Positions 4,248 through 62,947 of a DNA stretch of 64,000 bases are shown piece after piece (the stretch's first letter is position 1; every line of letters starts with the position of its first letter). This DNA comes from a candidate division Hyd24-12 bacterium UBA6080 (GTDB taxonomy: Bacteria; Fermentibacterota; Fermentibacteria; Fermentibacterales; JCC-6): assembly GCA_002436025.1 (NCBI GenBank), contig DIXM01000002.1, forward strand, positions 727,164 through 791,163, read 5' to 3'. Below the pieces are notes generated by a model. The model had not been told where the DNA came from, did no database searches, and was given only the letters and a program-made list of their open reading frames with translations. Position numbers and translations under genes: made by a program.

Positions 4248-4874
4248 ATGAGGTCGTTGCTTTTTCTGTTTGCTTCGGTGATTACCGTTTCAGCCGCAGA
4301 CATAGTCATCGGCAGCCAGGGCTCGCAGTCAAGCGATCCCTGGTGTGGTTCCTGAAGCTCTCAGATGCACTACCAGGTGGTGGTGCTCGACAGCGAGATG
4401 GGAAATGCCATGGACATTCTGTCCATTGCCTGGCAGAGGGCTGCCAGCGGCAGCAGTGAGGGTCATTATTATGGTGTTGAGATCCACATGGGGCTCTGCG
4501 CCGATGACGAGCTCGGTGCGACATTCGACGACAACTGGATTCCGGGCACCCGCACCCTTGTTTTCGCGGCGGACACACTTGACCTCAGCGGGAACGCCAA
4601 CGATTGGTCAGCTGTCACACTTGACAACCCCTTCTGGTACGGTGGTGAACAAAACCTTCTCATCGACCTTCAGTGGACCTCCGCCAATACGGCGTACAGC
4701 TTCTACACCTGGAGATGGGATACAGGTGCCGTCCGCTGCGTGAAGGCTATCAGCCTCGCCGCCCCTACTGGCGTGCTCTCTACACAGATCTCGGAATTGA
4801 TGTTCTCGGGCGATTTTTCGCTGTCCCAGAGCACATTCGGCGAGATCAAGACCGTTTTCGCCTGTGAAGATTGA
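4248..4874 (+). CDS. Secreted small protein, paralog 1, with in-frame TGA at 4353-4355 in a CGS-TGA (CxxU-like) motif: candidate selenoprotein of an uncharacterised family
   Basis: ATG 4248 with GGGAGG RBS. Signal peptide MRSLLFLFASVITVSAADIV. Same frame continues through TGA into ORF 4365-4874 (MHYQVVVLDSEMG...). The TGA position and context are conserved in two paralogs. A stem-loop lies 12 nt downstream of the TGA. Confidence 0.6.
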
Positions 4875-4884
4875 GGAACCATAC

Positions 4885-5517
4885 ATGAAAACACTTTCCA
4901 CTCTGTTGCTTCTTCTTGCAGCTGTTCCTGCAAGCGCCGCGACGGTTACCGTTGGCAGCGAGGAGCTGTCCTCCGGCGAACCACTTTGCGTATCTTGAAT
5001 CGAGTCGCTGCGCTACCAGGTGGTAGTGCTCGACTCTGAGATGGGCGGCGCGTTTGAATTCGACACCATCAGTCTCAAGAGGCACAGCTCGGGATCGACA
5101 TCCGGTCAGACCACTTTTGCCGACTTCGAGATCTGGGCGGGACTGGCTGAGTCCGATGTTCTCGGTGACAACTTCGAAGACAATTTCATCCCCGGCACCC
5201 GGACACTTCTATTCAGCCGCGAAAGCCTTCTGATTGAGGCCGAACCGAATGCCTGGATACCATTCGTACTCGATTCCCCCTTCTGGTACGGGGGAACAAA
5301 GAACCTCATCATCGAGATCCTCTGGTCCGAAGGTGAGGAACTGGGTACGGAGTGCGTCTACACATGGCAATGGAACACCGGAACCATGCGATGCGCATCC
5401 GGGCCGTACGATTCGGAAACAGGAAGCCGGACCAGCGTGATACCCCTCATTCAGTTCTCAGGGGACATGACCCTTTTGAACACCACTTTCGCCGGAGTCA
5501 AGACTTCCTTCCAGTAG
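4885..5517 (+). CDS. Secreted small protein, paralog 2, with in-frame TGA at 4996-4998 in a CVS-TGA motif: candidate selenoprotein
   Basis: ATG 4885. Signal peptide MKTLSTLLLLLAAVPASA. In-frame TGA, then IESLRYQVVVLDSEMGG... (ORF 5020-5517 in the same frame). Tandem with paralog 1. Equivalent hairpin after the TGA. Confidence 0.6.
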
Positions 5518-24903: not shown

Positions 24904-25446
24904 ATGCACCAGCTTCTATTCATGGCCATGATCGCGGGAACCGTTACAGTAGGGGAGAACGAGTATCCCCTTTCCGAGCCCCTCTGCGGGGGTTGAGGCT
25001 CGTCAACGATACACTGCCAGTTGGTGGTGCCGTCTGAAGAGCTTCCGGGTCCCTTGACCATCACGGGGTTTGCATTCCACAAAGGCCCCACGGGCGCCCG
25101 GAGCGCCACAGTATCGGAAGCGGCAGTGTTCATAGGCATCGCGGGAGGTGATGAACTGGGTCCTGAATTTCAGGCAAACAGGGTATCCCCGACCAGGGTC
25201 ATCAGCAGCGAAAGACTGACTGTCACCGCTGACGAGGACGGAATGGTGACCTTCACCTTCGATACGCCCTGGGAGTATGAGGATGGTGATATCCTCCTTG
25301 AGCTCAGGTTTGAAGGGGTATCAGGCTATCTTTACGTGTTCGGATGGACAGCGCCGGGCCGAAGGTACCTTTCAAGCGGGGATCTCACGGCTGAACGGGG
25401 TACGGTCTCGGAGAACCTGCCGGTCGTGACTCTGATAACGGAGTGA
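24904..25446 (+). CDS. Small protein, paralog 3 of the 4248/4885 family, with in-frame TGA at 24994-24996 in a CGG-TGA motif: candidate selenoprotein
   Basis: AGGAGG RBS then ATG 24904. MHQLLFMAMIAGTVTVGENEYPLSEPLCGG-TGA-GSSTIHCQLVVPSEE..., continuing in frame as ORF 25021-25446. N-terminal TVTVG..EPLC..TGA aligns with paralog 2. Hairpin after the TGA. Confidence 0.55.
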
Positions 25447-30114: not shown

Positions 30115-33100
30115 TTGGCGGGTATTGTCGCCGGAGACCCGCAAACGTTTGGGGGACAAATGCGGCAATCGCTGCTGGACAATCTCGCGGATGACATGGG
30201 CAGGATAGCAGGGAATTCGCGGGGCAGTACGACCCGGGGACCAGGACTTCATCCCGGTGAAAGACGGGATGTCGCCGTCCTGTTCCTTGACATCAGCGGT
30301 TTCACAGCCCTCGCGGAGAGAATGGACTTCGAGCTGGTCCATCATCTCGTGAACGGGATCATGCAGGTCTTCTCGGGGATCGTGTCGGACGGAGGCGGCT
30401 ATGTTGACAAACTGGAGGGGGATCGCATCATGGCCCTCTTCGGTGCTGAACAGGCCGGTGACAACGATTCGGTGAGGGCCGTGGAAAGCGCGCTCCGAAT
30501 GCTTCGCGCCCTTGACCAGGTCAACGGGATGCTTTCGGGGGAAGGCATCGAGATCGAGGCCAGGGCTGGAGTCAGTTACGGACAGGTCATCGTGGCGCCG
30601 GATGCCTGTGGTCACCTTACGGCAACCGGAGATGTCGTGAACGTTGCCTCCCGTCTTGCTGACGTTGCTCCCCTTGGCGGTCTGGCCGTTTCCGAAGGTG
30701 CAAGGAACATGTGCGGCAGCTTCCACACGTGGTCGGACCTTGGCGAGATCGTGATAAGGGGGCGATCGACACCTGTTCACGCCTTTCAGCCAACCGGACC
30801 CGGAGAGGTTCTCGTTCAGAGGTGGGAAAGGGCCGCGAGGATATCCGGCACTCCCCATCTTGGACGGGAAAGGGAGATGTCTCTGCTTCGCTCCACCTGG
30901 CAGGCCATGGAACCCGGCTCGTTCGCTGTCGTTTCCATAATGGGAGAGGCCGGCATCGGGAAGTCCAGGCTGCTTTTCGAGTTTGCCGCTGAGCTGGCGC
31001 GTTCGTCTGATGCACCGGTGGTCCTGTCCGGCAGGAACCTGTCCGTCTCGCAGCCACCACTCGGGCTCTGGTCGACGTTGCTCGCCGATGCCATTGCTGG
31101 CGAACTGCTTAGGGGGTCGCAGGTCAGGTCTCCCGAGGCCCTGCTTGAACGGCTTCTGTCCAGTTCCGGCACTGGCAGTGGCGATGATCTTCTGGGAACG
31201 CTTCCCTTCCTTCGAAGCCTTCTTTCCCTTGACCCCGGGAGGGACTCGCTTTCCGGCATCAGCCAGGACTCACGTCGCAAGGAAATGATGATCTCCCTGA
31301 GGAAGACCATCGAGGCGGTATCGGCTTCAAGGGATCTGCTTCTTGTACTGGAGGACATCCAATGGGCCGATGCAGCTTCAAGGGAAGTGCTTGACTTCGT
31401 ACTGGCAGGGCTCCGTCCAGCGCGCAGGGTGCTGATCCTTCTGTCGTACAGGACCGACGGAAGCAGGGAAACTCCCCTGCCCCCCTTGCATCAGGTAATC
31501 AGCCTTTTCGAGCTGGAGAAGTCCCATGGGAAGCTTATCATCGGGCACATGCTCGGGGAGGAGGTTGGCCACGGATTTGAGGATGCAGTTCTGGAAAGGT
31601 CCGGGGGCAACCCTTTCTTCATCGAAGAGATGGTGCTTGACCTGATAGAATCGGGACGTCTTGTGGAAACCGGGTACGGCTGGGAACACCACCCGGAACC
31701 CTCCGCGCCCTCTGCTCCCGCTTCCATAGGCGGGATCATCAGATCGAGGGTGGACAGGCTTCCCGCCGCGCAGAAATCAGGTCTTCTTCTCGCTTCCGTT
31801 CTGGGGTCCGAGTTCAGTGACGGGCTTTTCACAAGGGTATGCGGGCTGGCCGGGAACGGGTTTTCTCCTGTGGAATGTCTGGGACAACTCTTCGGAAGGG
31901 GATTCCTGAAACCCATTGATTGCTGCGGCGAGCCCGGCAGGCGTTTCACCCATCTTCTCATCCGTGATGCGGCATACGACATGCTGCTTTACAGGAACAG
32001 GACGATCCTGCACAGGTTCGCCGCCCAGGCCCTGGAGCAGGACTGCGCCGGCGGCAGGAGCGACATGGCCGTTGTGATAGCCGACCACTGGGACCTTGCG
32101 GGCAACCTTGGCAAGGCGATCGAATGGGGGTTGCGCGCACTGGCACACTGTGAGCTCTATTTCCTCAACGAGGAGGGGCTCGCGGTGACGGATCGGCTCC
32201 TTCGATGGATCGAAGGCCAGCCCGGAAGCAGTTACCGTGATAACTCGCTTTTCGAGGTGATGATGGCCCGCGAGAAATTCCTTGGTCTTCTGGGCCGCAG
32301 GGACGAACAGGCGCTATTGCTTCGTGAGCTGGGAAACTCTGCGGAGAAAGCCGAAAGGCGCGACTGGACGGTTATGGTGAAGGGGCGTCTGGGTAGGATG
32401 CAGATCCATACCGGGATGCTCGAGCAGGCCAGGGAAACCCTTGCCCCGGCTATCGTTGAATCGGCTGCGCTCTGCAGCAGAGATGTTCACGGTGGGATGC
32501 TCGCTGATATGGCCGCCCTTTGCATCAAGCAGGGCAGAGCACTCGAAAGCATCGAGCTGGCAGGGGAGGCACTCAGGCTTTTCAGGGAGTGTGGGGACAG
32601 GAACGCAGAATGCATGGCCATAAACTCGCTGGGCATAGCGAACTGGAACATGGAGAGGCTGCCCGAAGCCCTTGGGTTCTTCCAGACCGCCAACGAATTG
32701 AGCAAGGACACCCGGAACAGGTGGTACGAGGGGAACACGCTGCTGAACATCGGCGTGATCCATCGATGCCTGGGGGACATGGACAAGGCGAGGGAGTATT
32801 ACCAGAAAGCACTGGAACTCACCCGGGAAACCGGAAACCTTCAGAGCGAGGCCAACGCCCATGCAAACCTGGGTATCCTTGCCTTGCTCGAGGGCAGGCT
32901 GGAGGATGCCGGAAAGCATTACAACTCGGCCCTCGTCATTTACAGGAAAACGGGGAACAAACTGCTGGAACTCCAGACACTGGCCAAACTCGGCAGGCTT
33001 GCCGCGAGGCATGAAAGGTATCGTGAGGCTGAAGCTCTTTTCAGGCAATCCCTTGCCATTCAGGAGGAGACGGGGCAGACCCTTGATGAGTGTGAGACCC

Positions 33101-33423
33101 TCAACAGCCTCGCTGAGCTTCTGCTCAAGACCGGAAGGACAGACCAGGCTGAGCAGTTGCTCAAGAGGGCTCTGGAAGTCAGCATGGCCACGGAAGACGG
33201 TGTCGGGGAAGCCGGAGCCCTCTGCATGCTCGCCGGGATCGAACTCGAAAGGGGGGATCTGAAAAGGGCCGTTGAGTTTCATTCCCGGGCGATGTCAGCC
33301 TGCGAAGGCAACGGTATCGAGGACGAACTTGACCTGAAGCTCAATGAACTGGCCGAAAAACTGAGGCTGCCCGGTCCTTCCGGCAATGAACAGTGTCAAA
33401 CCCCATTCAATCCCTTATGTTAA
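30115..33423 (+). CDS. Class III adenylate/guanylate cyclase domain - AAA ATPase - TPR repeat regulatory protein
   Basis: Cyclase core VAVLFLDISGFTALAERMD...VDKLEGDRIMALFG; Walker A GEAGIGKSRLL; C-terminal TPR repeats (NSLGIANW, YEGNTLLNIGVIH, etc.); no HTH. Confidence 0.75.
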   Translation: MAGIVAGDPQTFGGQMRQSLLDNLADDMGRIAGNSRGSTTRGPGLHPGERRDVAVLFLDISGFTALAERMDFELVHHLVNGIMQVFSGIVSDGGGYVDKLEGDRIMALFGAEQAGDNDSVRAVESALRMLRALDQVNGMLSGEGIEIEARAGVSYGQVIVAPDACGHLTATGDVVNVASRLADVAPLGGLAVSEGARNMCGSFHTWSDLGEIVIRGRSTPVHAFQPTGPGEVLVQRWERAARISGTPHLGREREMSLLRSTWQAMEPGSFAVVSIMGEAGIGKSRLLFEFAAELARSSDAPVVLSGRNLSVSQPPLGLWSTLLADAIAGELLRGSQVRSPEALLERLLSSSGTGSGDDLLGTLPFLRSLLSLDPGRDSLSGISQDSRRKEMMISLRKTIEAVSASRDLLLVLEDIQWADAASREVLDFVLAGLRPARRVLILLSYRTDGSRETPLPPLHQVISLFELEKSHGKLIIGHMLGEEVGHGFEDAVLERSGGNPFFIEEMVLDLIESGRLVETGYGWEHHPEPSAPSAPASIGGIIRSRVDRLPAAQKSGLLLASVLGSEFSDGLFTRVCGLAGNGFSPVECLGQLFGRGFLKPIDCCGEPGRRFTHLLIRDAAYDMLLYRNRTILHRFAAQALEQDCAGGRSDMAVVIADHWDLAGNLGKAIEWGLRALAHCELYFLNEEGLAVTDRLLRWIEGQPGSSYRDNSLFEVMMAREKFLGLLGRRDEQALLLRELGNSAEKAERRDWTVMVKGRLGRMQIHTGMLEQARETLAPAIVESAALCSRDVHGGMLADMAALCIKQGRALESIELAGEALRLFRECGDRNAECMAINSLGIANWNMERLPEALGFFQTANELSKDTRNRWYEGNTLLNIGVIHRCLGDMDKAREYYQKALELTRETGNLQSEANAHANLGILALLEGRLEDAGKHYNSALVIYRKTGNKLLELQTLAKLGRLAARHERYREAEALFRQSLAIQEETGQTLDECETLNSLAELLLKTGRTDQAEQLLKRALEVSMATEDGVGEAGALCMLAGIELERGDLKRAVEFHSRAMSACEGNGIEDELDLKLNELAEKLRLPGPSGNEQCQTPFNPLC

Positions 33424-35411: not shown

Positions 35412-36017
35412 CTATCGGTACAATGCCTTTATGGCTCCGAACGTGCTTTGCCCGAAAGAACCCGGGATATCGTAATCCACGACCAAGTTAGGGTGTTCTG
35501 AGGCCGCTTCCCGCGAGAAGAAATTCTGGTACAATCCTGAGCCGCCGGTTCCGAAGAAAACAATTCCGTAGTTGGGATAGGTCCCCTGAACCCATTCCTG
35601 AACGAGGCCCTTCACATCGAATTCGTACCATCCGTTTTCAGTAACGACGATCTGGTCGTATGAGCCCGCATCGTCGTAGGCGATGCTGTTCACCAGGACG
35701 CTCTCGCTCCATGGTTCCGTCACGCGGAAGATCTCGCACTCCAATGCGCTCCCGGGGTTGCCGTCGTATCTGAAGATGTTCAGGTATGCGGTGTTGACAA
35801 TGGCTTCCTGGGGTAGTGAAGACAGGTCGAAGCTGATAACGATCCGCTGGTCGAAGGAACTGATGTTGTTGGTCCTGAGCTGCTGACTTGACCCGAACGG
35901 CCCCTGGCCGGGCCAGATCCAGGTGTCTGCGTCGGGAAGCTGGACAATGGTCTCGGCGGAGGCCACAGCAGCGATCAGAACCGTCAACATCAAAGCCAAA
36001 GTGACGCTTCTCATCAT
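35412..36017 (-). CDS. Secreted DNRLRE-domain protein ending in the shared C-terminal motif STFGAIKALYR
   Basis: Signal peptide MMRSVTLALMLTVLIAAVASA. TIVQLPDADTWIW...GWYEFDV...SREAASEHPNLVVDY pattern consistent with the DNRLRE domain. Confidence 0.5.
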   Translation of the reverse strand: MMRSVTLALMLTVLIAAVASAETIVQLPDADTWIWPGQGPFGSSQQLRTNNISSFDQRIVISFDLSSLPQEAIVNTAYLNIFRYDGNPGSALECEIFRVTEPWSESVLVNSIAYDDAGSYDQIVVTENGWYEFDVKGLVQEWVQGTYPNYGIVFFGTGGSGLYQNFFSREAASEHPNLVVDYDIPGSFGQSTFGAIKALYR

Positions 36018-36268
36018 CCCCTCCTAGGTTCTTTTTCCGCAAACCATGCATCAGACAATGGTTTCCGGGCATTTGCCGGAGCGTCGGCGCAGCATTCCGC
36101 TCCCGAGCAGTTATCTGATTTTACATGCAGGATGTCCAGATTGTTCCCGGTCCAGCATCTTAAGCGAAACCAATCCTTGTTCCAAAACGACTCATTCCGT
36201 AAACACATGCGTACGACTTCATTCTATATTACGATGGACATGGGCTGTATCGGGAGAAACGGGGGGGT

Positions 36269-36961
36269 ATGAAAAACACAGTTCTGCTGCTTATCGCTCT
36301 TTCAGGGCCTGTTTGGGCGGACTTTGTCGATGACTTCCAGTCTTACCAGCCGGGACAGGGCCCTGAGTCATCCGGCAACTGGATCAGGGAGGAGAGCGGA
36401 GGCTACGCCCTGGTGACATCCCAGGGTGAGAACCAGGTGATCGAGGCTTTCTTCCCGGATTCTACCTATCTGGGATACCTTTGCTCTGCGGCGGGTTTCT
36501 GGACGGACGGGTCGGTTTCGATGGGCTTCAGCCCCGATGGCACCGGAAGCCTCGTGAATGTGCTGGCCAGGATGCAGATCACCACGGGCGAAGCCTACGT
36601 GGGAGGCGTGATCGTCTTCCTCCAGCCCTTCACCTATGCCTACATCGGCTATGTGAACACGACGGGAGACTACGAGCTTCTTTACAGCAATTTCGGTCCC
36701 ACGCTGACACCCGGGACCTGGGTCAACGTGGGTCTCACTGTAGAAAACATTGACCCGGTCGTGCTCACCCTTCACATAAACGGCCAGCAGGCCGCCCAGG
36801 TGCTTGACCCTGTGTACCGGCTGGGTTCGGGTCTCTCCGGCTTCGCGATGATCTACGAGGGCGATGTTCCCTCCATCCTCGCCGACGACTTTCAGGTCGT
36901 CCTGAGCGCACAGGCGCTTGAAACGACAACCTTTGGAGCGATCAAGGCGGTGTTCAGATGA
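36269..36961 (+). CDS. Secreted hypothetical protein ending in the shared C-terminal motif TTFGAIKAVFR
   Basis: Signal peptide MKNTVLLLIALSGPVWA. No recognised domain. C-terminal 11 aa nearly identical to the divergently transcribed DNRLRE protein. Confidence 0.45.
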   Translation: MKNTVLLLIALSGPVWADFVDDFQSYQPGQGPESSGNWIREESGGYALVTSQGENQVIEAFFPDSTYLGYLCSAAGFWTDGSVSMGFSPDGTGSLVNVLARMQITTGEAYVGGVIVFLQPFTYAYIGYVNTTGDYELLYSNFGPTLTPGTWVNVGLTVENIDPVVLTLHINGQQAAQVLDPVYRLGSGLSGFAMIYEGDVPSILADDFQVVLSAQALETTTFGAIKAVFR

Positions 36962-37209
36962 AGGGGACGATCCCGGGAAAACTCCTTACCGCTTTGCTTG
37001 CCTTGCTTCTGCAGGCTTCTTGCGGCGGGAACGACAGTGCGAACGGGCAGAACGCAGATCAGGGATCCGGAATGATCGAGGCCGTGGAAGCCATAAACGA
37101 CATTGCCACACCTCCCGTGCCCACGGGTGTGATAAACGATGCCCGGGATGCTGCTGCTGCAGCCAACGCCCACGTTGAGACCGTAGACTCCATACTGGGA
37201 TCCCAATGA
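36958..37209 (+). CDS. Small lipoprotein
   Basis: LLALLLQASC lipobox, 83 aa, start overlaps upstream stop. Confidence 0.35.
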   Translation: MKGTIPGKLLTALLALLLQASCGGNDSANGQNADQGSGMIEAVEAINDIATPPVPTGVINDARDAAAAANAHVETVDSILGSQ

Positions 37210-37219
37210 AGCGGGGGCT

Positions 37220-37519
37220 GTGAAACGGGAACGTACACTTCTCGCAGTCTCCGGACTCTCGTTCTTCGCCGTTCTTCTTTCGGTGAGCGCGTACCTTCTG
37301 CACTGGAGGGTGGCGAACGAACCGGGTGCACGGCCGGTTCCCGAGCTTCTCACCATTTCCGCTGTACTTCTTTCTGCCGGATCGTTCGGAGCCCTTCTGT
37401 CAAACGGAATGCTCCTTCTCCGCCGGACTCGCAAGTGGCGCATCCTTCTGATCCCGCCTGGCGCCGCCCTTATACTGTACCTGCCGGTACTTGCGCTTAC
37501 GCTCATCATGCTGGTATAG
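37220..37519 (+). CDS. Small membrane protein
   Basis: 99 aa, three predicted TM helices. Confidence 0.3.
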   Translation: MKRERTLLAVSGLSFFAVLLSVSAYLLHWRVANEPGARPVPELLTISAVLLSAGSFGALLSNGMLLLRRTRKWRILLIPPGAALILYLPVLALTLIMLV

Positions 37520-41011: not shown

Positions 41012-42436
41012 TCAGGGCATGTCACCCGATCCGTAAAGCTCTTTAAGGCACTCGGGACAGATGCTGTGGGAGAACTCGGTCTCCGAGTGCTTCGAGATGT
41101 ACGACTCGATCTGCTCCCAGTAACCGCTGTCATCCCTGATCTTCTTGCAGTGAGAGCAGATGGGGAGCATTCCCTGCAACCTGCGGACATGCTCAAGGGC
41201 CTGTGACAGCTCTTCGTTCTTCTTTTCCAGTTCAACATTCTTGAGCCGGTATATCTCCGACTCCTGCTCTTTCCGCTCTGTTTCGTACTGCACCTGAAGC
41301 TCCGCGATCCTCTGAAGGTTTTCCCGGTTCAGGTGTTCTTCCTGTTTCGCCTTCAGCTCCCTGGCAACTGCCAGGGCTTTTCCGAGTTCACCCCTTGCCT
41401 CGTGAAGGTTCATCATCTCCTCGAGGCAGTCGATCGTCATCTTGGAAAGGCCTATGGATTCGCATATCTCCATTGACCTCAGGATCGATTCCTCAGCCTC
41501 GGAGTGCTTTCCAAGAAGAACAAGAACACCGCCCCTTCGGCACAAAGCATACGCTGAACCTCGTTTGTAGTCAGTGTCGTCACTGAGCGCGATGCTTTTC
41601 GAATAGAAGTCAAGCGCCGATTCGAGATTGCCGGCCTGTTTCTGAAGGTCGCCGATAAGGCCAAGCGTTCCTGCAGCATTCTTCTTCTGACCTGTCTCAA
41701 GCCGTATCTCAAGGGCTCTCCCAAGGCAGTCCATGGCCTTTACGAGTTCGTTCCTCTCCTTGTGGACCGCACCAATGTTGTTGTAAATGAACGCTATCTT
41801 GGCGCGGTCGCCGGACGCTTCCCAGACTCCACGGACGAACTCGAAAGCCGACTCAGCCCTGTCCAGTTCCTTCTGGCTCAGGTAGCACGAACCTATGTTG
41901 TAGTAGGAATGTGCAAGGACATCGGGGCTGGCGCCGTACCCCTGTTTTGTGTGAAGCGAGGCAATGTACTGCTCCAGGGCTTTCTCCACCGATCCCATGT
42001 TCCAGAAGATGTTCCCTATTGTTCCCTGGGCCGAGGCAATGCCCTTCGGATTACCTATCCTTTCGGAAAGCTTCAGTGAGCTTCGACAGAATGCCATGGC
42101 GTCGGGGTAGTTCCCGGTATCAAGCTTGATGACGCCCAGTGTCAGAAGGCTTTGGGCAAGAGCCTCGTCAAGACCGAGCCTTTCCGCAAGGTTCCTGGCC
42201 TCGGAGGCGTAAGCTTCAGCCTTTTCCGAGGGCAGGTAGTAAAGACCGTTGTAGGCAAGGTCGTTCAGAACCCTTACGAGCTCATCACCCGCAGGCTCTG
42301 CCCGCAGTGACTCAAGCTTTGCCTCAAGCTCAGAAAGCTCTTCCCGGTTCACAAGACCTCCCAGTGGTGAGAACGATCCCTGATGATACCGGAGAGTTTT
42401 CCTCAGGGGCAACAGGGAAAGAGAACTGATCATCAA
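41012..42436 (-). CDS. TPR-repeat protein with coiled-coil and C-terminal Cys4 zinc-ribbon-like module
   Basis: Multiple TPR units (YYNIGSCY, AFIYNNIGAV, etc.). C-terminal LPICSHCKKIRDDSGYWEQIESYISKHSETEFSHSICPECLKELYG (CxxC...CxxC). Confidence 0.5.
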   Translation of the reverse strand: MMISSLSLLPLRKTLRYHQGSFSPLGGLVNREELSELEAKLESLRAEPAGDELVRVLNDLAYNGLYYLPSEKAEAYASEARNLAERLGLDEALAQSLLTLGVIKLDTGNYPDAMAFCRSSLKLSERIGNPKGIASAQGTIGNIFWNMGSVEKALEQYIASLHTKQGYGASPDVLAHSYYNIGSCYLSQKELDRAESAFEFVRGVWEASGDRAKIAFIYNNIGAVHKERNELVKAMDCLGRALEIRLETGQKKNAAGTLGLIGDLQKQAGNLESALDFYSKSIALSDDTDYKRGSAYALCRRGGVLVLLGKHSEAEESILRSMEICESIGLSKMTIDCLEEMMNLHEARGELGKALAVARELKAKQEEHLNRENLQRIAELQVQYETERKEQESEIYRLKNVELEKKNEELSQALEHVRRLQGMLPICSHCKKIRDDSGYWEQIESYISKHSETEFSHSICPECLKELYGSGDMP

Positions 42437-45654: not shown

Positions 45655-47910
45655 ATGAGAAGCATGCTTTTTGCTTTGATATGCACTTTGCCCTGCGTTG
45701 CGGGAGAGGTTCTCTACCGCAATGCGGATGCGCTTCCCGAAGCCTGCATACTGGATTCCGACGGGGGCTCCATGACGATCAGGTTTGACCTGCCTGCAAT
45801 CATCGGGTCAACCGGGGATGTTGGCGTTTTCGGTTCTGGAACGACCCTTCGTGTTCCGGGATGGGGAATTCTCGCGGAGGCTGGCTGCCCCGATCTGCCG
45901 GTGCTCAGGAAGCTGGTCATGGTCCCTAACACATGCGGGGTGAGCCTTCAGGTGATCGAGGAGACCACGACCAGCCTCGGAGTCTTCAGAATTCCCCCTT
46001 TCCAGAAGCCCGGACTGAGATCCGGCGGGACCGTTCCCTACGAACAGGACCTGGCAGTCTACGGATCGGTTGGTCCTTTCCCTTCGGGATGCGCGTTCCT
46101 TGAGGGCGTGCATGTGCTGCGGGACATAAGGGTCGCGACAGTCAGGTTCCAGCCCGTCAGGTACGATCCCCTGTCAGGCGAGGCGACGATAGTGACATCG
46201 GCCACCGTCAGGCTGACATTCGGAGGATCAGGCCAGAACGAGCTGAACCGGTCGTTCCAGGGCACGACCCCGGGTTTCATGCCTTTGTACGGCGGAGTTC
46301 TCGGGTATGAGCCCACCGGTCCGTTCCTCGCCGGCTCCTATCTGTTCATCGGAACCGATGAAAGCCTTGATGCGATCGAGCCGCTGGTCAATTGGAAAAG
46401 ACAGAGGGGCTACCGGGTGTTCCTTGGGACGGTGCCAGAGATCGGGTCAAACGCTGAGATGGTAGATAACTGGATCGAAATGGCCTTCATGAACTGGGAG
46501 TACCCGCCGGAATGGATCCTCATCGCAGGAGGAGAGGACCTGGTGCCCGTACCGCTTCACGATGGGTTCGCATCCGACAACATCTACGGAGTCATTGGAA
46601 CGGAGACAAGCGTGCCCTCCATTCACGTCGGCAGGATTACCGGATCCCTTTTGGACCTCCAGTACCAGGCATGGAAGATCCTGCAGCATGAAGCCGATCC
46701 CTTCGAGCCAGGCGAAGTGAGCTGGTTCCAGAAGGCTGTCACCATCGGGTCAAGTGATGCTCTTGATCCGCTGCACTCCTGGGAGCACACGCAGATGTTC
46801 ATGGAACACGGCATCGCCGTTGACTACTACTGCGATGATCCGATGTACGGCGGAACACCTCCATCAATCGAGGCCATTTCAGCGAACATCAATGAGGGAA
46901 GGACCATAGTCGACTACATCGGGCATGGTTGGGAGCAGGGATGGGGTACATCCGGTTTTTCGATCACTGATGTCGCCGCCCTGTCCAATGGCCGAATGCT
47001 TCCGTGGGTGTTCTCGATAGCCTGCAGCAACGCAACCTTCATGAATGGTTACTGTTTCGGCGAGGCCTGGATGACCGAGGGTGAGATGACCGAACCGCAG
47101 GGCGGCCTTGGCTTCATGGGTGCCACCACCGGGAGCCCTTTCGGCCCCACGGATTCTCTTGCAGAATACACCTGGCGCGGCTACTTCGAACTCGAAATCC
47201 ACCACATGGGCGCGGCGGTCGACTACGGCAAGCTGAAGGTCGAGGAGTTCTACGGAGTCGAGAACTATGGCAACAACTGGATGCACATGGTGTTCGGATG
47301 TCCCGAGGTCGACATATACTCCGATACTTCCCCGATCGCACTGCTGGATGCGAGCCACAGCCCCAATATCTGGAGCGGTTCCTGGCCGGTGAACGTCAGC
47401 ACGGTTGGCGGGGACCCGGTTGAGGCCGCTCTGGTCGGGGTGGTCCAGGGCGATGAGCTGCTCGGAGCAGGATACTCTGACAGCAACGGCTTCCTGCAAC
47501 TCGACATCCCCGAGCTGCCATACGGCGGCTCCATGGAGGCGATCCTCACGGTTACGGCTCACAACCTCAGGCCTTACACGGCAAACCTCGACCCCGCACC
47601 CGAGGGGTTTGAAGAGGGGGAGGGAACGGCACTCTTCCTCGCCCCGGTGCTTCCCAACCCGTTTTCGGCCATAACGTCCATCTCCTTCGGTCTGCCCGGG
47701 GCCTCTCAGTGCAACCTTTCCATCTTCGACATCTCCGGGAGACTGGTGCGTACGCTGTTCGAGGGGAGCCTCCCGGGAGGAAGTCAAAGCATTGTCTGGG
47801 ATGGACGTACCGGATCGGGAAGTTCCTGCCCGGACGGCATCTACTTCATCCGGCTGCATACTCCGAACGCGACTCTTGTGGAGAGGGCTGTGCGGCTGGG
47901 CTCAAACTAG
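45655..47910 (+). CDS. Gingipain-like cysteine peptidase (C25 family) with C-terminal T9SS/FlgD-Ig-like sorting domain
   Basis: Signal peptide MRSMLFALICTLPCVAG. YIGHGWEQGW and FSIACSNATF catalytic His/Cys context. C-terminus NPFSAITSISFGLPGASQCNLSIFDISGRLVRTLFEG...GIYFIRL matches the T9SS CTD pattern. Confidence 0.7.
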   Translation: MRSMLFALICTLPCVAGEVLYRNADALPEACILDSDGGSMTIRFDLPAIIGSTGDVGVFGSGTTLRVPGWGILAEAGCPDLPVLRKLVMVPNTCGVSLQVIEETTTSLGVFRIPPFQKPGLRSGGTVPYEQDLAVYGSVGPFPSGCAFLEGVHVLRDIRVATVRFQPVRYDPLSGEATIVTSATVRLTFGGSGQNELNRSFQGTTPGFMPLYGGVLGYEPTGPFLAGSYLFIGTDESLDAIEPLVNWKRQRGYRVFLGTVPEIGSNAEMVDNWIEMAFMNWEYPPEWILIAGGEDLVPVPLHDGFASDNIYGVIGTETSVPSIHVGRITGSLLDLQYQAWKILQHEADPFEPGEVSWFQKAVTIGSSDALDPLHSWEHTQMFMEHGIAVDYYCDDPMYGGTPPSIEAISANINEGRTIVDYIGHGWEQGWGTSGFSITDVAALSNGRMLPWVFSIACSNATFMNGYCFGEAWMTEGEMTEPQGGLGFMGATTGSPFGPTDSLAEYTWRGYFELEIHHMGAAVDYGKLKVEEFYGVENYGNNWMHMVFGCPEVDIYSDTSPIALLDASHSPNIWSGSWPVNVSTVGGDPVEAALVGVVQGDELLGAGYSDSNGFLQLDIPELPYGGSMEAILTVTAHNLRPYTANLDPAPEGFEEGEGTALFLAPVLPNPFSAITSISFGLPGASQCNLSIFDISGRLVRTLFEGSLPGGSQSIVWDGRTGSGSSCPDGIYFIRLHTPNATLVERAVRLGSN

Positions 47911-61267: not shown

Positions 61268-62947
61268 ATGAGAGCGTTGCCGTGGTTGTTCCTTCTTCCA
61301 TCACTTCTGCTCGGTCAGTGGAGCCCTGATTCCACCCAGAATCTCACGATCTGTGACCTTTCGGGTGAGCAGGTCCTTCCCAAGATAGTTCCCACTTCCG
61401 ACGGCGGGTGCTTCATCTCCTGGTTCGATACCAGGTCGGGGAGCTACTGCGTCTACCTTCAGCGGTTGGATTACCAGGGCGTTCCCCAGTTGGGGGATGA
61501 CGGTATCCTGGTGAGCGACCAGCCCCAGATGAGCTGGATCGTTGACTACTCGATGGCGGTCGACGGGTCGGACAACGCGGTTCTCGCCTTTTCGGACGAG
61601 AGGAACGGCTCGGATGAGCTGGACGTTTCGGTCTACAAGGTCAGCAGTACGGGTGAGTTCCTGTGGGGGGAGGACGGGATCTGCCTTTCGAATCCTTCCG
61701 TACCGGGGTTTGAGCCTAACCCGGTCGTCGCCGTGACGGATCAGGGCAACTGCGTGTTTGCCTGGGGAAAGTCCGAAGACACCGACTACCTGGTTTTTCA
61801 GAAGCTCTCACCCTCGGGTGAAAAGCTGTGGGGGGACTACGGTCTTGTTTTGTCGAGCGCTTCGGCAGACCTGTCCTCGCCTGCCATTGTCCCTTCGGGC
61901 CAGGACAGCGTTATCGTGCTGTGGAAAAGCTCGACCGGTTCTTACCCCATGACAGTGACCCACCTCTACGCGGACATGCTGGATGTGAACGGTGAGGGCA
62001 CATGGAGCGACTCGCCGGTTCTGGTCTACAACACCGGCACGATCACTCCGTGGACATTCCCCGGGATCATCGGGGACGGTTCCGACGGGGCCGTGTGCTT
62101 CTGGTACGATTCCCCCACCATGAATTCCTTCGACGTGTGGGTGCAGCACCTCGACAGCCAGGGCATCAACCTGTTCCCCTTCAACGGCGCCCAGGCCTCG
62201 ACTTTCTCTGCGGACAGGCTTCACATGAGCCCTTCGGCCGTCATCAACTCCGCAGGCGTGTGCTTTGCCTTCTGGGTGGAGAGCAACGCCAACCAGAACA
62301 TGTACGGTGTCTACGGCCAGAAGTTTTCTTCAACAGGGGACCGTCTGTGGACGGACAGCGGCCTTGATCTCCTCCCGCTTGGGTCCGAGCAGACGGCATT
62401 CGTGGATGCCCTGGCTGCGGGCGACGGCATCTTCGTATCCTACTTCATCAACGCGTCGAACACATCGTTCAAGGTCCTGAAGCTTGACTTCGACGGGACC
62501 GTCCTCTGGGGGCCCGTCTCCCTGTCCGCAGGAAGCCTTGGTGGCAAGGACGACCCCGTGGTCTGCCCGGGATACGATGACGGCGCGTACTACACCTGGA
62601 CCGACAACAGGGGTGACGGCGGCGTGTACGCCCAGAACATCCAGTCCGACGGAACAATGGGGCAGTACCTGGGCGTTGAGCCAGGTTCGGTCGCGGAGTA
62701 CCTGCGTGTAACCCCGAACCCCTCCCGGGGAGCGGTGAGCTTCGTACTTGGCGGATCTGCGGGAGAGACGGCCATCGTGCGGATCTACGACCTGTCCGGG
62801 CGGCTCGTAGACAGCCTTGGTACGGTCCTGGGGGCTGAGGGCGCCTCACTCTCGTGGAACAGGGCCGGTTCGGTCCCCCCCGGCGTTTACCTCGTGAGGA
62901 TGGAGAACGGTTCCAGGGTTCTTCTGTCACGGATGATCCTGCTCTAG
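61268..62947 (+). CDS. Secreted repeat protein with C-terminal T9SS/FlgD-Ig-like sorting domain
   Basis: Signal peptide MRALPWLFLLPSLLLG. CTD ...VTPNPSRGAVSFVLGGSAGETAIVRIYDLSGRLVDSL...GVYLVRMENGSRVLLSRMILL. Confidence 0.6.
   Translation: MRALPWLFLLPSLLLGQWSPDSTQNLTICDLSGEQVLPKIVPTSDGGCFISWFDTRSGSYCVYLQRLDYQGVPQLGDDGILVSDQPQMSWIVDYSMAVDGSDNAVLAFSDERNGSDELDVSVYKVSSTGEFLWGEDGICLSNPSVPGFEPNPVVAVTDQGNCVFAWGKSEDTDYLVFQKLSPSGEKLWGDYGLVLSSASADLSSPAIVPSGQDSVIVLWKSSTGSYPMTVTHLYADMLDVNGEGTWSDSPVLVYNTGTITPWTFPGIIGDGSDGAVCFWYDSPTMNSFDVWVQHLDSQGINLFPFNGAQASTFSADRLHMSPSAVINSAGVCFAFWVESNANQNMYGVYGQKFSSTGDRLWTDSGLDLLPLGSEQTAFVDALAAGDGIFVSYFINASNTSFKVLKLDFDGTVLWGPVSLSAGSLGGKDDPVVCPGYDDGAYYTWTDNRGDGGVYAQNIQSDGTMGQYLGVEPGSVAEYLRVTPNPSRGAVSFVLGGSAGETAIVRIYDLSGRLVDSLGTVLGAEGASLSWNRAGSVPPGVYLVRMENGSRVLLSRMILL

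Follow-up and report, generated by a model that had tools for sequence, protein, structure and literature searches.

A 64,000-bp stretch of the genome of candidate division Hyd24-12 bacterium UBA6080, a member of the Fermentibacterota (contig DIXM01000002.1, positions 727,164 to 791,163; hereafter the window), contains four genes, A to D, whose predicted products end in closely similar peptides of about 15 residues (Table 1). The C-terminus of C is GSFGQSTFGAIKALYR, that of D is LETTTFGAIKAVFR, that of A is SLSQSTFGEIKTVFACED, and that of B is LLNTTFAGVKTSFQ. All four tails fit the pattern TF[GA]x[IV]Kxx[FY], followed by one to four residues. Among the 56 predicted proteins of the window, 6.7e-5 such tails are expected by chance within the last 18 residues, and 5000 shuffles gave none. 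A shared C-terminal motif on secreted proteins, as noticed in a first-pass annotation of this DNA, was thus borne out. A six-frame search of the window with a looser expression returned six matches, four of them ending no more than four residues from a stop codon. The copy in B is the most diverged and has the lowest score of the set against the tag profile (22.7 bits). Here we describe the distribution of this element, hereafter the tag, and suggest that it may act as a recognition signal in the cell envelope.

Genes C and D are divergent neighbours with 251 bp between them. The reading of C as a DNRLRE-domain protein was confirmed by matches to Pfam CBM96 (aa 28-181, E 4e-15) and NCBIfam DNRLRE_dom (aa 40-180, E 4e-26). 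The domain stops at about residue 181 of 201, and the tail beyond it is just 20 aa long. No family match was found for A, B, or D in Pfam or NCBIfam. The first-pass annotation had described four unrelated bodies; A and B share 42% identity (E 3e-44) and are paralogs, so the window tags are carried by three unrelated body families rather than four. A third paralog (BLASTP E 9e-10 against A) is untagged, and the tag is therefore optional within a family. Signal peptides had likewise been assigned to all four proteins. Those of C and D stand; those of A and B depend on read-through of an in-frame TGA codon.

Table 1. Tagged genes, their tags, and other features of the window (window positions, 1-based).
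Feature	Position	Strand	Description
Gene C	35412..36017	-	Signal-peptide DNRLRE/CBM96 protein, 201 aa, tag-bearing; open reading frame (ORF) and translation
Tag of C	35415..35456	-	F-G-Q-S-T-F-G-A-I-K-A-L-Y-R; outside the DNRLRE domain
Gene D	36269..36961	+	Signal-peptide protein, 230 aa, tag-bearing, no known family
Tag of D	36917..36958	+	L-E-T-T-T-F-G-A-I-K-A-V-F-R
Gene A	4248..4874	+	Signal peptide and C-G-S-U if TGA (4353-4355) is read through; body without family match; tag
Tag of A	4821..4871	+	L-S-Q-S-T-F-G-E-I-K-T-V-F, then ACED
Gene B	4885..5517	+	Paralog of A; C-V-S-U if TGA (4996-4998) is read through; tag
Tag of B	5473..5514	+	L-L-N-T-T-F-A-G-V-K-T-S-F-Q; diverged copy
Untagged third A/B paralog	24904..25446	+	C-G-G-U (TGA 24994-24996) in the read-through translation; ends PVVTLITE-stop
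83-aa lipoprotein-like gene	36958..37209	+	ATG overlaps the stop of D (AGATGA)
Large protein with T9SS type A C-terminal domain (contrast)	45655..47910	+	TIGR04183 27.1 bits, cut-off 23
Second protein with T9SS type A C-terminal domain (contrast)	61268..62947	+	TIGR04183 36.5 bits, cut-off 23

Distribution and conservation of the tag

The F form of the tag was searched as back-translated TFGAIKAx[FY] in 185,579 species genomes. Of 102 matches, 29 lie within seven residues of the stop of a long ORF. The remaining 73 are spread over many phyla and are internal or fall in tiny ORFs. Named metagenome-assembled genomes (MAGs) among the 29 belong to Fermentibacteraceae, Fermentibacteria, Aegiribacteria, Eisenbacteria, and Coatesbacteria, with one Fibrobacteraceae MAG. 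Complete F-form ORFs begin with a signal-peptide-like sequence, and tagged genes are frequently found in tandem or in divergent pairs. Zero to seven residues, usually a single Arg, follow the aromatic residue in these copies. The terminal position is strict: in 230 kb of DNA from tag-bearing lineages, 36 occurrences of the loose motif lie no more than 12 residues from a stop, and a single one is internal. After removal of the tag, the F-form bodies fall into eight BLAST families, with every pairwise hhalign probability below 15%. Five genomes of Methylophilaceae/Nitrosomonadales (L020, L022, L037, L038, and L073) carry G-[KE]-TFGAIKA[IV]Y-stop with another stop just three residues upstream. 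These matches are probably another frame of a conserved gene, with no relation to the tag.

In locus L001 the ortholog of the CBM96 protein ends in GGSWAEIKAAQN, with Trp at the position of the Phe. A metagenome scan for this W form (TWGxIKAx[FY]) gave at least 128 matches in at least 120 loci. Among the 128 matches listed, 116 are no more than six residues from a stop, and seven of the other 12 fall in an internal stretch that, by eye, we take to be IF-2-like. In the viral-contig control, 2 of 23 matches were C-terminal. Typical ends are TWGSIKAMFR-stop, TWGAIKALYR-stop, and TWGGIKALYR-stop. The 93 W-tagged ORFs among the matches listed form 46 BLAST body clusters; 67 stop exactly one residue past the aromatic, with Arg as that residue in 59, and two tails run to 10 and 14 residues. 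At positions that the scan left free, V is favoured at -5, E at -4, small or polar residues at +2, and L or M at +6. An N-terminal hydrophobic signal region is present in 75 of the 82 complete W-tagged ORFs listed, and three are lipoprotein-like. Both the recurrence of the motif beyond the window and its association with signal peptides, which the first-pass annotation had raised, are therefore upheld by these counts. Exact-sequence look-ups placed W-tagged proteins in Candidatus Fermentibacteria, Aegiribacteria, Ignavibacteriales, and Latescibacterota, in each case under the name 'hypothetical protein'.

DNRLRE proteins bear either form, for example YTTAGSLESTTFGAIKALF and YTTAGSLDESTWGHIKAGF. 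Because relatives carry one or the other, the F and W forms are regarded as a single tag. The W form, T-W-G-x-I-K-A-[LM]-[FY]-R-stop, is much commoner, and the F form is a rarer variant. In the metagenome scan, 26 of the 120 listed loci (L102-L220; e.g., L201 7915-8313 and L106 5230-5685) encode signal-peptide proteins of 132-150 aa that end in VSGVKRTWGSIKAMFR, one of them from Ignavibacteriales. The synteny around this family is conserved, with neighbours that by eye we take to be genes for Maf, SpoIID, a MATE transporter, and a membrane protein.

An exhaustive hidden Markov model (HMM) search against 1.84 billion representatives, which reports nothing weaker than E 0.001, a level beyond the reach of a 15-aa motif, returned two matches, one a false repeat protein and the other P0030 (L101 10001-10819). 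A 40-aa alignment against a word index of 5.8 billion proteins gave seven candidates and one match. P0030 is a 272-aa lipoprotein with four tandem W-form copies at its end, about 18 residues apart (TTWGRIKALYR…TWSTIKGVY…TWGRIKALI…TWGGIKAQVL-stop). It is the sole multi-copy case seen. None of 130 other tagged proteins has more than one copy, and multiple copies as a rule were rejected.

The tail is conserved in orthologs of the window genes. For D, 27 homologs were found, one of them named Candidatus Fermentibacteraceae, and orthologs down to 54% identity retain L-x-x-x-T-F-G-A-[IVL]-K-A-x-F followed by one to six variable residues. In this alignment, where no residue was forced by a scan, T, F/W, G/A, I/V/L, K, and F are conserved and the Lys is invariant. 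Lys was invariant in all copies examined, though both collection scans demanded it. The motif also takes in a hydrophobic residue five positions before F/W. Twelve homologs of C, down to 53% identity, retain its tail; these are close relatives, and distant DNRLRE proteins with other sorting signals lay beyond the reach of that search. In 35 tag copies, every base that the code allows is used at the third position of the codons for Thr, Gly, Ala, and Ile. Since synonymous positions vary freely, selection acts on the peptide and not on the DNA, and a DNA-level repeat was rejected for this reason.

The tag is modular. More than 50 families in scattered loci bear it, with bodies that include CBM96/DNRLRE, beta-helix, and X25-like domains, and most are without a Pfam family. 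Beta-helix bodies of two W-tagged proteins (L209 and L172) align with those of L110 and L103 (E 2e-14 to 3e-10) up to a common end of the type CG-x-[VI]GA-x-G-x-[GA]-C. Past this shared end, L209 has 16 residues, tag included. L110 has about 95 more residues, forming a C-terminal domain that is T9SS/FlgD-like as judged by eye (T9SS, type IX secretion system), and L103 continues into a similar domain, also judged by eye. Since homologous bodies end either in the tag or in what by eye is a T9SS-type domain, the tag seemingly stands where a known sorting domain would otherwise be. Among the 120 listed W loci, 15 have neighbours on which T9SS type A domains were recognized by eye.

Structure predictions are consistent with a tail that stands apart from the body. 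In the AlphaFold2 (AF2) model of D a helix is drawn at 219-228 with a predicted local distance difference test (pLDDT) score of about 30, and in that of C the tail (aa 188-201) is a coil with pLDDT of about 28. At this very low confidence the tail is not confidently modelled in either protein, and it would not appear to be part of the body fold. The helical hydrophobic moment at 100° is 0.38, compared with 0.33 in shuffles, which is not significant; strand periodicity is if anything stronger, and the analysis did not tell helix and strand apart.

Selenoprotein candidates and neighbouring genes

The in-frame TGA of A and B falls in a conserved P-x-C-x-x-U motif just past the signal peptide, and three paralogs with this motif are present in the window. 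The same TGA occurs in this motif in nine further genes from five loci of other assemblies, and a homolog from Aegiribacteria has Cys at the TGA position (C-A-D-C). This comparison strongly supports the prediction that the A/B family consists of secreted C-x-x-U selenoproteins. Members of the family outside the window lie in loci L070, L074, L059, L098, L076, and L046.

The stop codon of D shares bases with the start codon of the 83-aa lipoprotein-like gene, after which comes a gene for a protein of about 99 aa, apparently with three membrane segments (36955-37519 for the whole arrangement). The arrangement is kept in three other Fermentibacteria loci: L001 (10696-11269), L035, and L088. The product of the 83-aa gene had no family match, and no pilotin family was detected. 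The arrangement suggests that translation is coupled and that D is part of a small envelope module. The 83-aa gene is a member of the D operon, and its product may be a D-specific partner.

Large genes for adenylate/guanylate cyclase-AAA-TPR regulators adjoin tagged genes in six loci (the window, at 30115-33423 and 41012-42436, and L001, L021, L040, L071, and L088). These neighbours may merely be abundant paralogs. The product of the larger T9SS-type gene in Table 1 is 751 aa long and has a weak, sub-threshold likeness to the PorU sortase/C25 peptidase region (E 1e-12, far below the cut-off).

Role of the tag and rival explanations

We slightly favour the view that the tag is a sorting or docking recognition peptide bound by a conserved envelope protein. 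In the proposed mechanism, [hydrophobic]-x-x-x-(S/T)-(F/W)-G-x-(I/V)-K-A-x-(F/Y)-(R)-stop would act at the protein level as a modular recognition tag, appended to the C-terminus of proteins that are exported by the Sec system to the cell envelope. A flexible linker would keep the folded body and the tag apart. In diderm bacteria of the Fibrobacteres-Chlorobi-Bacteroidetes (FCB) group, a conserved envelope protein would bind the tag, and binding would send cargo to, or hold it at, a cell-surface or outer-membrane structure, or pass it to an export route other than T9SS. Specific recognition is suggested because all motif positions but two are conserved and because the tag is interchangeable with a T9SS-type domain. 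The sorting or recognition role proposed in the first-pass annotation is one that we infer from sequence patterns, as we do a dedicated partner and the destination of the cargo. It is conceivable, if on balance rather doubtful, that the tag is the address label of an envelope sorting, export, or attachment pathway of its own, parallel to T9SS, with its own receptor or enzyme and found in a large part of the FCB superphylum (Fermentibacterota, Ignavibacteriota, Eisenbacteria, Latescibacterota, and Coatesbacteria). What such a pathway reads would be neither a folded domain nor a transmembrane signal but a linear peptide, about 15 residues long, in which the Lys is invariant.

Several observations weigh against recognition by an envelope partner, or against particular versions of it. 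Both collection scans fixed T, F/W, G, I, K, A, and F/Y, and conservation at these positions in the two sets is partly built in. Among the neighbour genes, no recurring partner candidate was found beyond the abundant cyclase-AAA-TPR regulators and proteins with T9SS-type domains. Both AF2 models are mediocre, with mean pLDDT of 56 and 66. The four copies of P0030 fit better with a binding module than with a cleaved export signal. Two W-tagged products (L147 1456-1869 and L159 5170-5664) are, by eye, presumably a cupredoxin (with YFCIPHCGSGMTG) and a CHRD-domain protein; if these labels are correct, some tagged cargo would be expected to be periplasmic. Taken with the copies of P0030, the cupredoxin-like cargo makes us lean towards retention or docking over a cleaved export signal. 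PDZ-type recognition was also considered and rejected.

The tag could instead be a direct membrane or lipopolysaccharide (LPS) anchor, with the last ~10 residues forming a short interfacial amphipathic element (W/F, I, L/M, and F/Y with snorkelling K and R) that needs no protein receptor. The composition is indeed aromatic and basic, AF2 draws a helix for the tail of D, and in our own reading of a helical wheel the residues W/F, I, L/M, and F/Y share a single arc, which K and R border. The C-terminal tail of E. coli PBP5 (FFGKIIDYIKLMF), an amphipathic anchor of this kind, is of similar flavour, tandem copies in a lipoprotein would raise avidity, and cupredoxin-like cargo would fit a periplasmic tether. 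Yet the hydrophobic moment does not differ significantly from that of shuffles, the tail of C is drawn as a coil, and a stretch of ten residues is short for anchoring in the membrane plane. Across phyla the tag keeps G, K, and A almost unchanged, whereas lipid-binding helices usually keep the pattern and not the sequence, and we consider an anchor of this type unlikely. The invariant Lys may alternatively be an acceptor amine, through which an L,D-transpeptidase-like or sortase-like enzyme would link the protein to peptidoglycan, LPS, or another polymer. Lys is the sole residue invariant in every copy seen, the four of P0030 included, and P0030, with a lipid end and tags at the opposite end, is laid out like a tether between membrane and wall. 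The ending K-x-x-[FY]-R is similar to the K-Y-R-K of Braun's lipoprotein (Lpp), and the Ignavibacteriales tagged family lies beside a gene that is SpoIID-like by eye. Covalent attachment by analogy with Lpp would nevertheless demand a C-terminal Lys, which the tag does not have; no candidate enzyme was seen among the neighbour genes, and the resemblance leans on few cases. We regard this as less likely still than the membrane anchor.

Under ordinary homology, the bodies would have in common a single C-terminal domain that evolves fast, and the tail would be its last structural element. Small beta-rich domains are frequent among the bodies, the strand that directly precedes the tag is often P-x-L-x-V-x-Y in both the DNRLRE and A/B families, and BLAST with tags included merges these two families. 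Without the tag, however, the profile-profile probabilities stay at the low values given above, and the 46 W-form clusters among the matches listed include such different bodies as beta-helix and CBM96. The untagged paralog in the window and the low pLDDT of the tail in both models also speak against a common domain. In agreement with the first-pass annotation, which had set a tag apart from such a domain, we consider this reading very improbable. A nucleic-acid or translational element appears just as improbable, whether as a site in DNA or RNA or as a signal just ahead of the stop codon for nascent-peptide arrest or termination. In its favour, the spacing to the stop codon is strict, the stop of D overlaps the start of the next gene, and TAG stops are enriched at the tagged genes of L003-L221 and the window. 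In the F set, TAG ends 17 of 33 tagged ORFs and 41 of 172 others (odds ratio 3.4, p 0.003); in the W set the counts are 41 of 83 and 144 of 490 (odds ratio 2.3, p 0.0005). ORFs for the background were called crudely. Against it, synonymous positions vary freely, nothing in common was seen among the downstream sequences, and there is no systematic in-frame extension past the stop; stop read-through into a hidden domain was rejected on the last of these grounds. The tag is found on dozens of enzyme and CBM families, whereas each arrest peptide known so far is confined to a single dedicated monitor protein.

As far as the searched resources show, the tag is undescribed and would represent a new class of C-terminal sorting or anchoring signal. 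Nothing in Pfam or NCBIfam release 20 covers it, comparison of the tag profile with PDB sequences returned nothing relevant (just an antibody 'TFG'), and a full-text literature search with tag strings and FCB sorting signals returned nothing relevant beyond the Por/T9SS domain. More than once, a C-terminal sorting signal has opened the way to a new machine for secretion or anchoring; sortase was reached from LPXTG, exosortase from PEP-CTERM, and PorU/PorV from the T9SS C-terminal domain. Many envelope proteins bear the tag in phyla that are widespread, largely uncultured, and active in polymer degradation in sediments, sludge, and soils. Its definition would allow hundreds of 'hypothetical proteins' to be labelled as one cargo class; the tag also provides a handle for a partner search by phylogenetic profiling and points to an exported C-x-x-U selenoprotein family as predicted cargo. 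The tag may also serve as a very short portable display or targeting tag in these organisms.

Comparison with known C-terminal signals

Like the tag, the T9SS C-terminal domains (type A, TIGR04183; type B, TIGR04131) are C-terminal addresses on Sec-exported proteins of the FCB group and occur on many unrelated cargo families. They differ in being folded, Ig-like domains of 70-100 aa, whereas the tag has about 15 aa and very low AF2 confidence. Neither TIGR04183 nor TIGR04131 matched A-D (E up to 1) or the tested W-tagged proteins (E up to 10), although the same library does find TIGR04183 above the cut-off in two other window proteins (Table 1). The distinction drawn earlier between the tag and the T9SS domains of the window is therefore correct, and so is that from PEP-CTERM and LPXTG. 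The tripartite signals (LPXTG/sortase, PEP-CTERM/exosortase, and GlyGly-CTERM/rhombosortase) share with the tag a short C-terminal motif, diverse signal-peptide proteins, and restriction to certain lineages. Past the motif they have a transmembrane helix and a basic tail, whereas the tails of the tag hold no hydrophobic stretch; no NCBIfam CTERM model matched the tagged proteins.

A signature like that of the beta-barrel assembly machinery (BAM), another possibility raised in the first-pass annotation, was not supported. The tag and the beta-signal recognized by BAM both have a C-terminal aromatic residue and a Gly a few residues upstream, and the tag may have the periodicity of a beta-strand. 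The beta-signal is carried on beta-barrel proteins and follows polar-x-G-x-x-aromatic-x-aromatic, with a terminal aromatic and alternate positions hydrophobic. In the tag, the aromatic is usually penultimate, before Arg, and the invariant Lys stands where a hydrophobic residue is required. None of the tested bodies belongs to a barrel family; they are CBM96/DNRLRE or beta-helix domains or match no family. Identity with the beta-signal was rejected on the mismatched register and the non-barrel bodies.

Two other extreme C-terminal envelope tethers may be compared. The PBP5/PBP6 anchor is rich in F, G, I, and K like the tag, but has about 18 aa and is not a motif conserved across families. Lpp ends in K-Y-R-K and its attached Lys must be last, whereas the Lys of the tag lies four to five residues from the end and the last residue is usually Arg or aromatic.

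The encapsulin cargo-loading peptide (L-x-I-G-S-L-K-G), about 10 aa long, also serves for docking from the C-terminus of unrelated cargo proteins, and its hydrophobic-G-S/A-I/L-K core is similar to that of the tag. Its cargo is cytoplasmic and encoded beside the shell gene, whereas tagged proteins have signal peptides; no shell-like gene recurs among the neighbours of tagged genes, and encapsulin loading was rejected on both counts. The S-domain of secretins is likewise a short C-terminal peptide, unstructured alone, that is thought to fold when bound by a small lipoprotein, the pilotin, which carries its cargo to the outer membrane. Gene D similarly precedes an overlapping gene for an 83-aa lipoprotein-like product. 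The S-domain is limited to one protein family, whereas the tag occurs on more than 50. By analogy, the closest working models would be the T9SS C-terminal domain, with the same role in another form, and the pilotin-bound or cargo-loading peptide, with the same form in another compartment.

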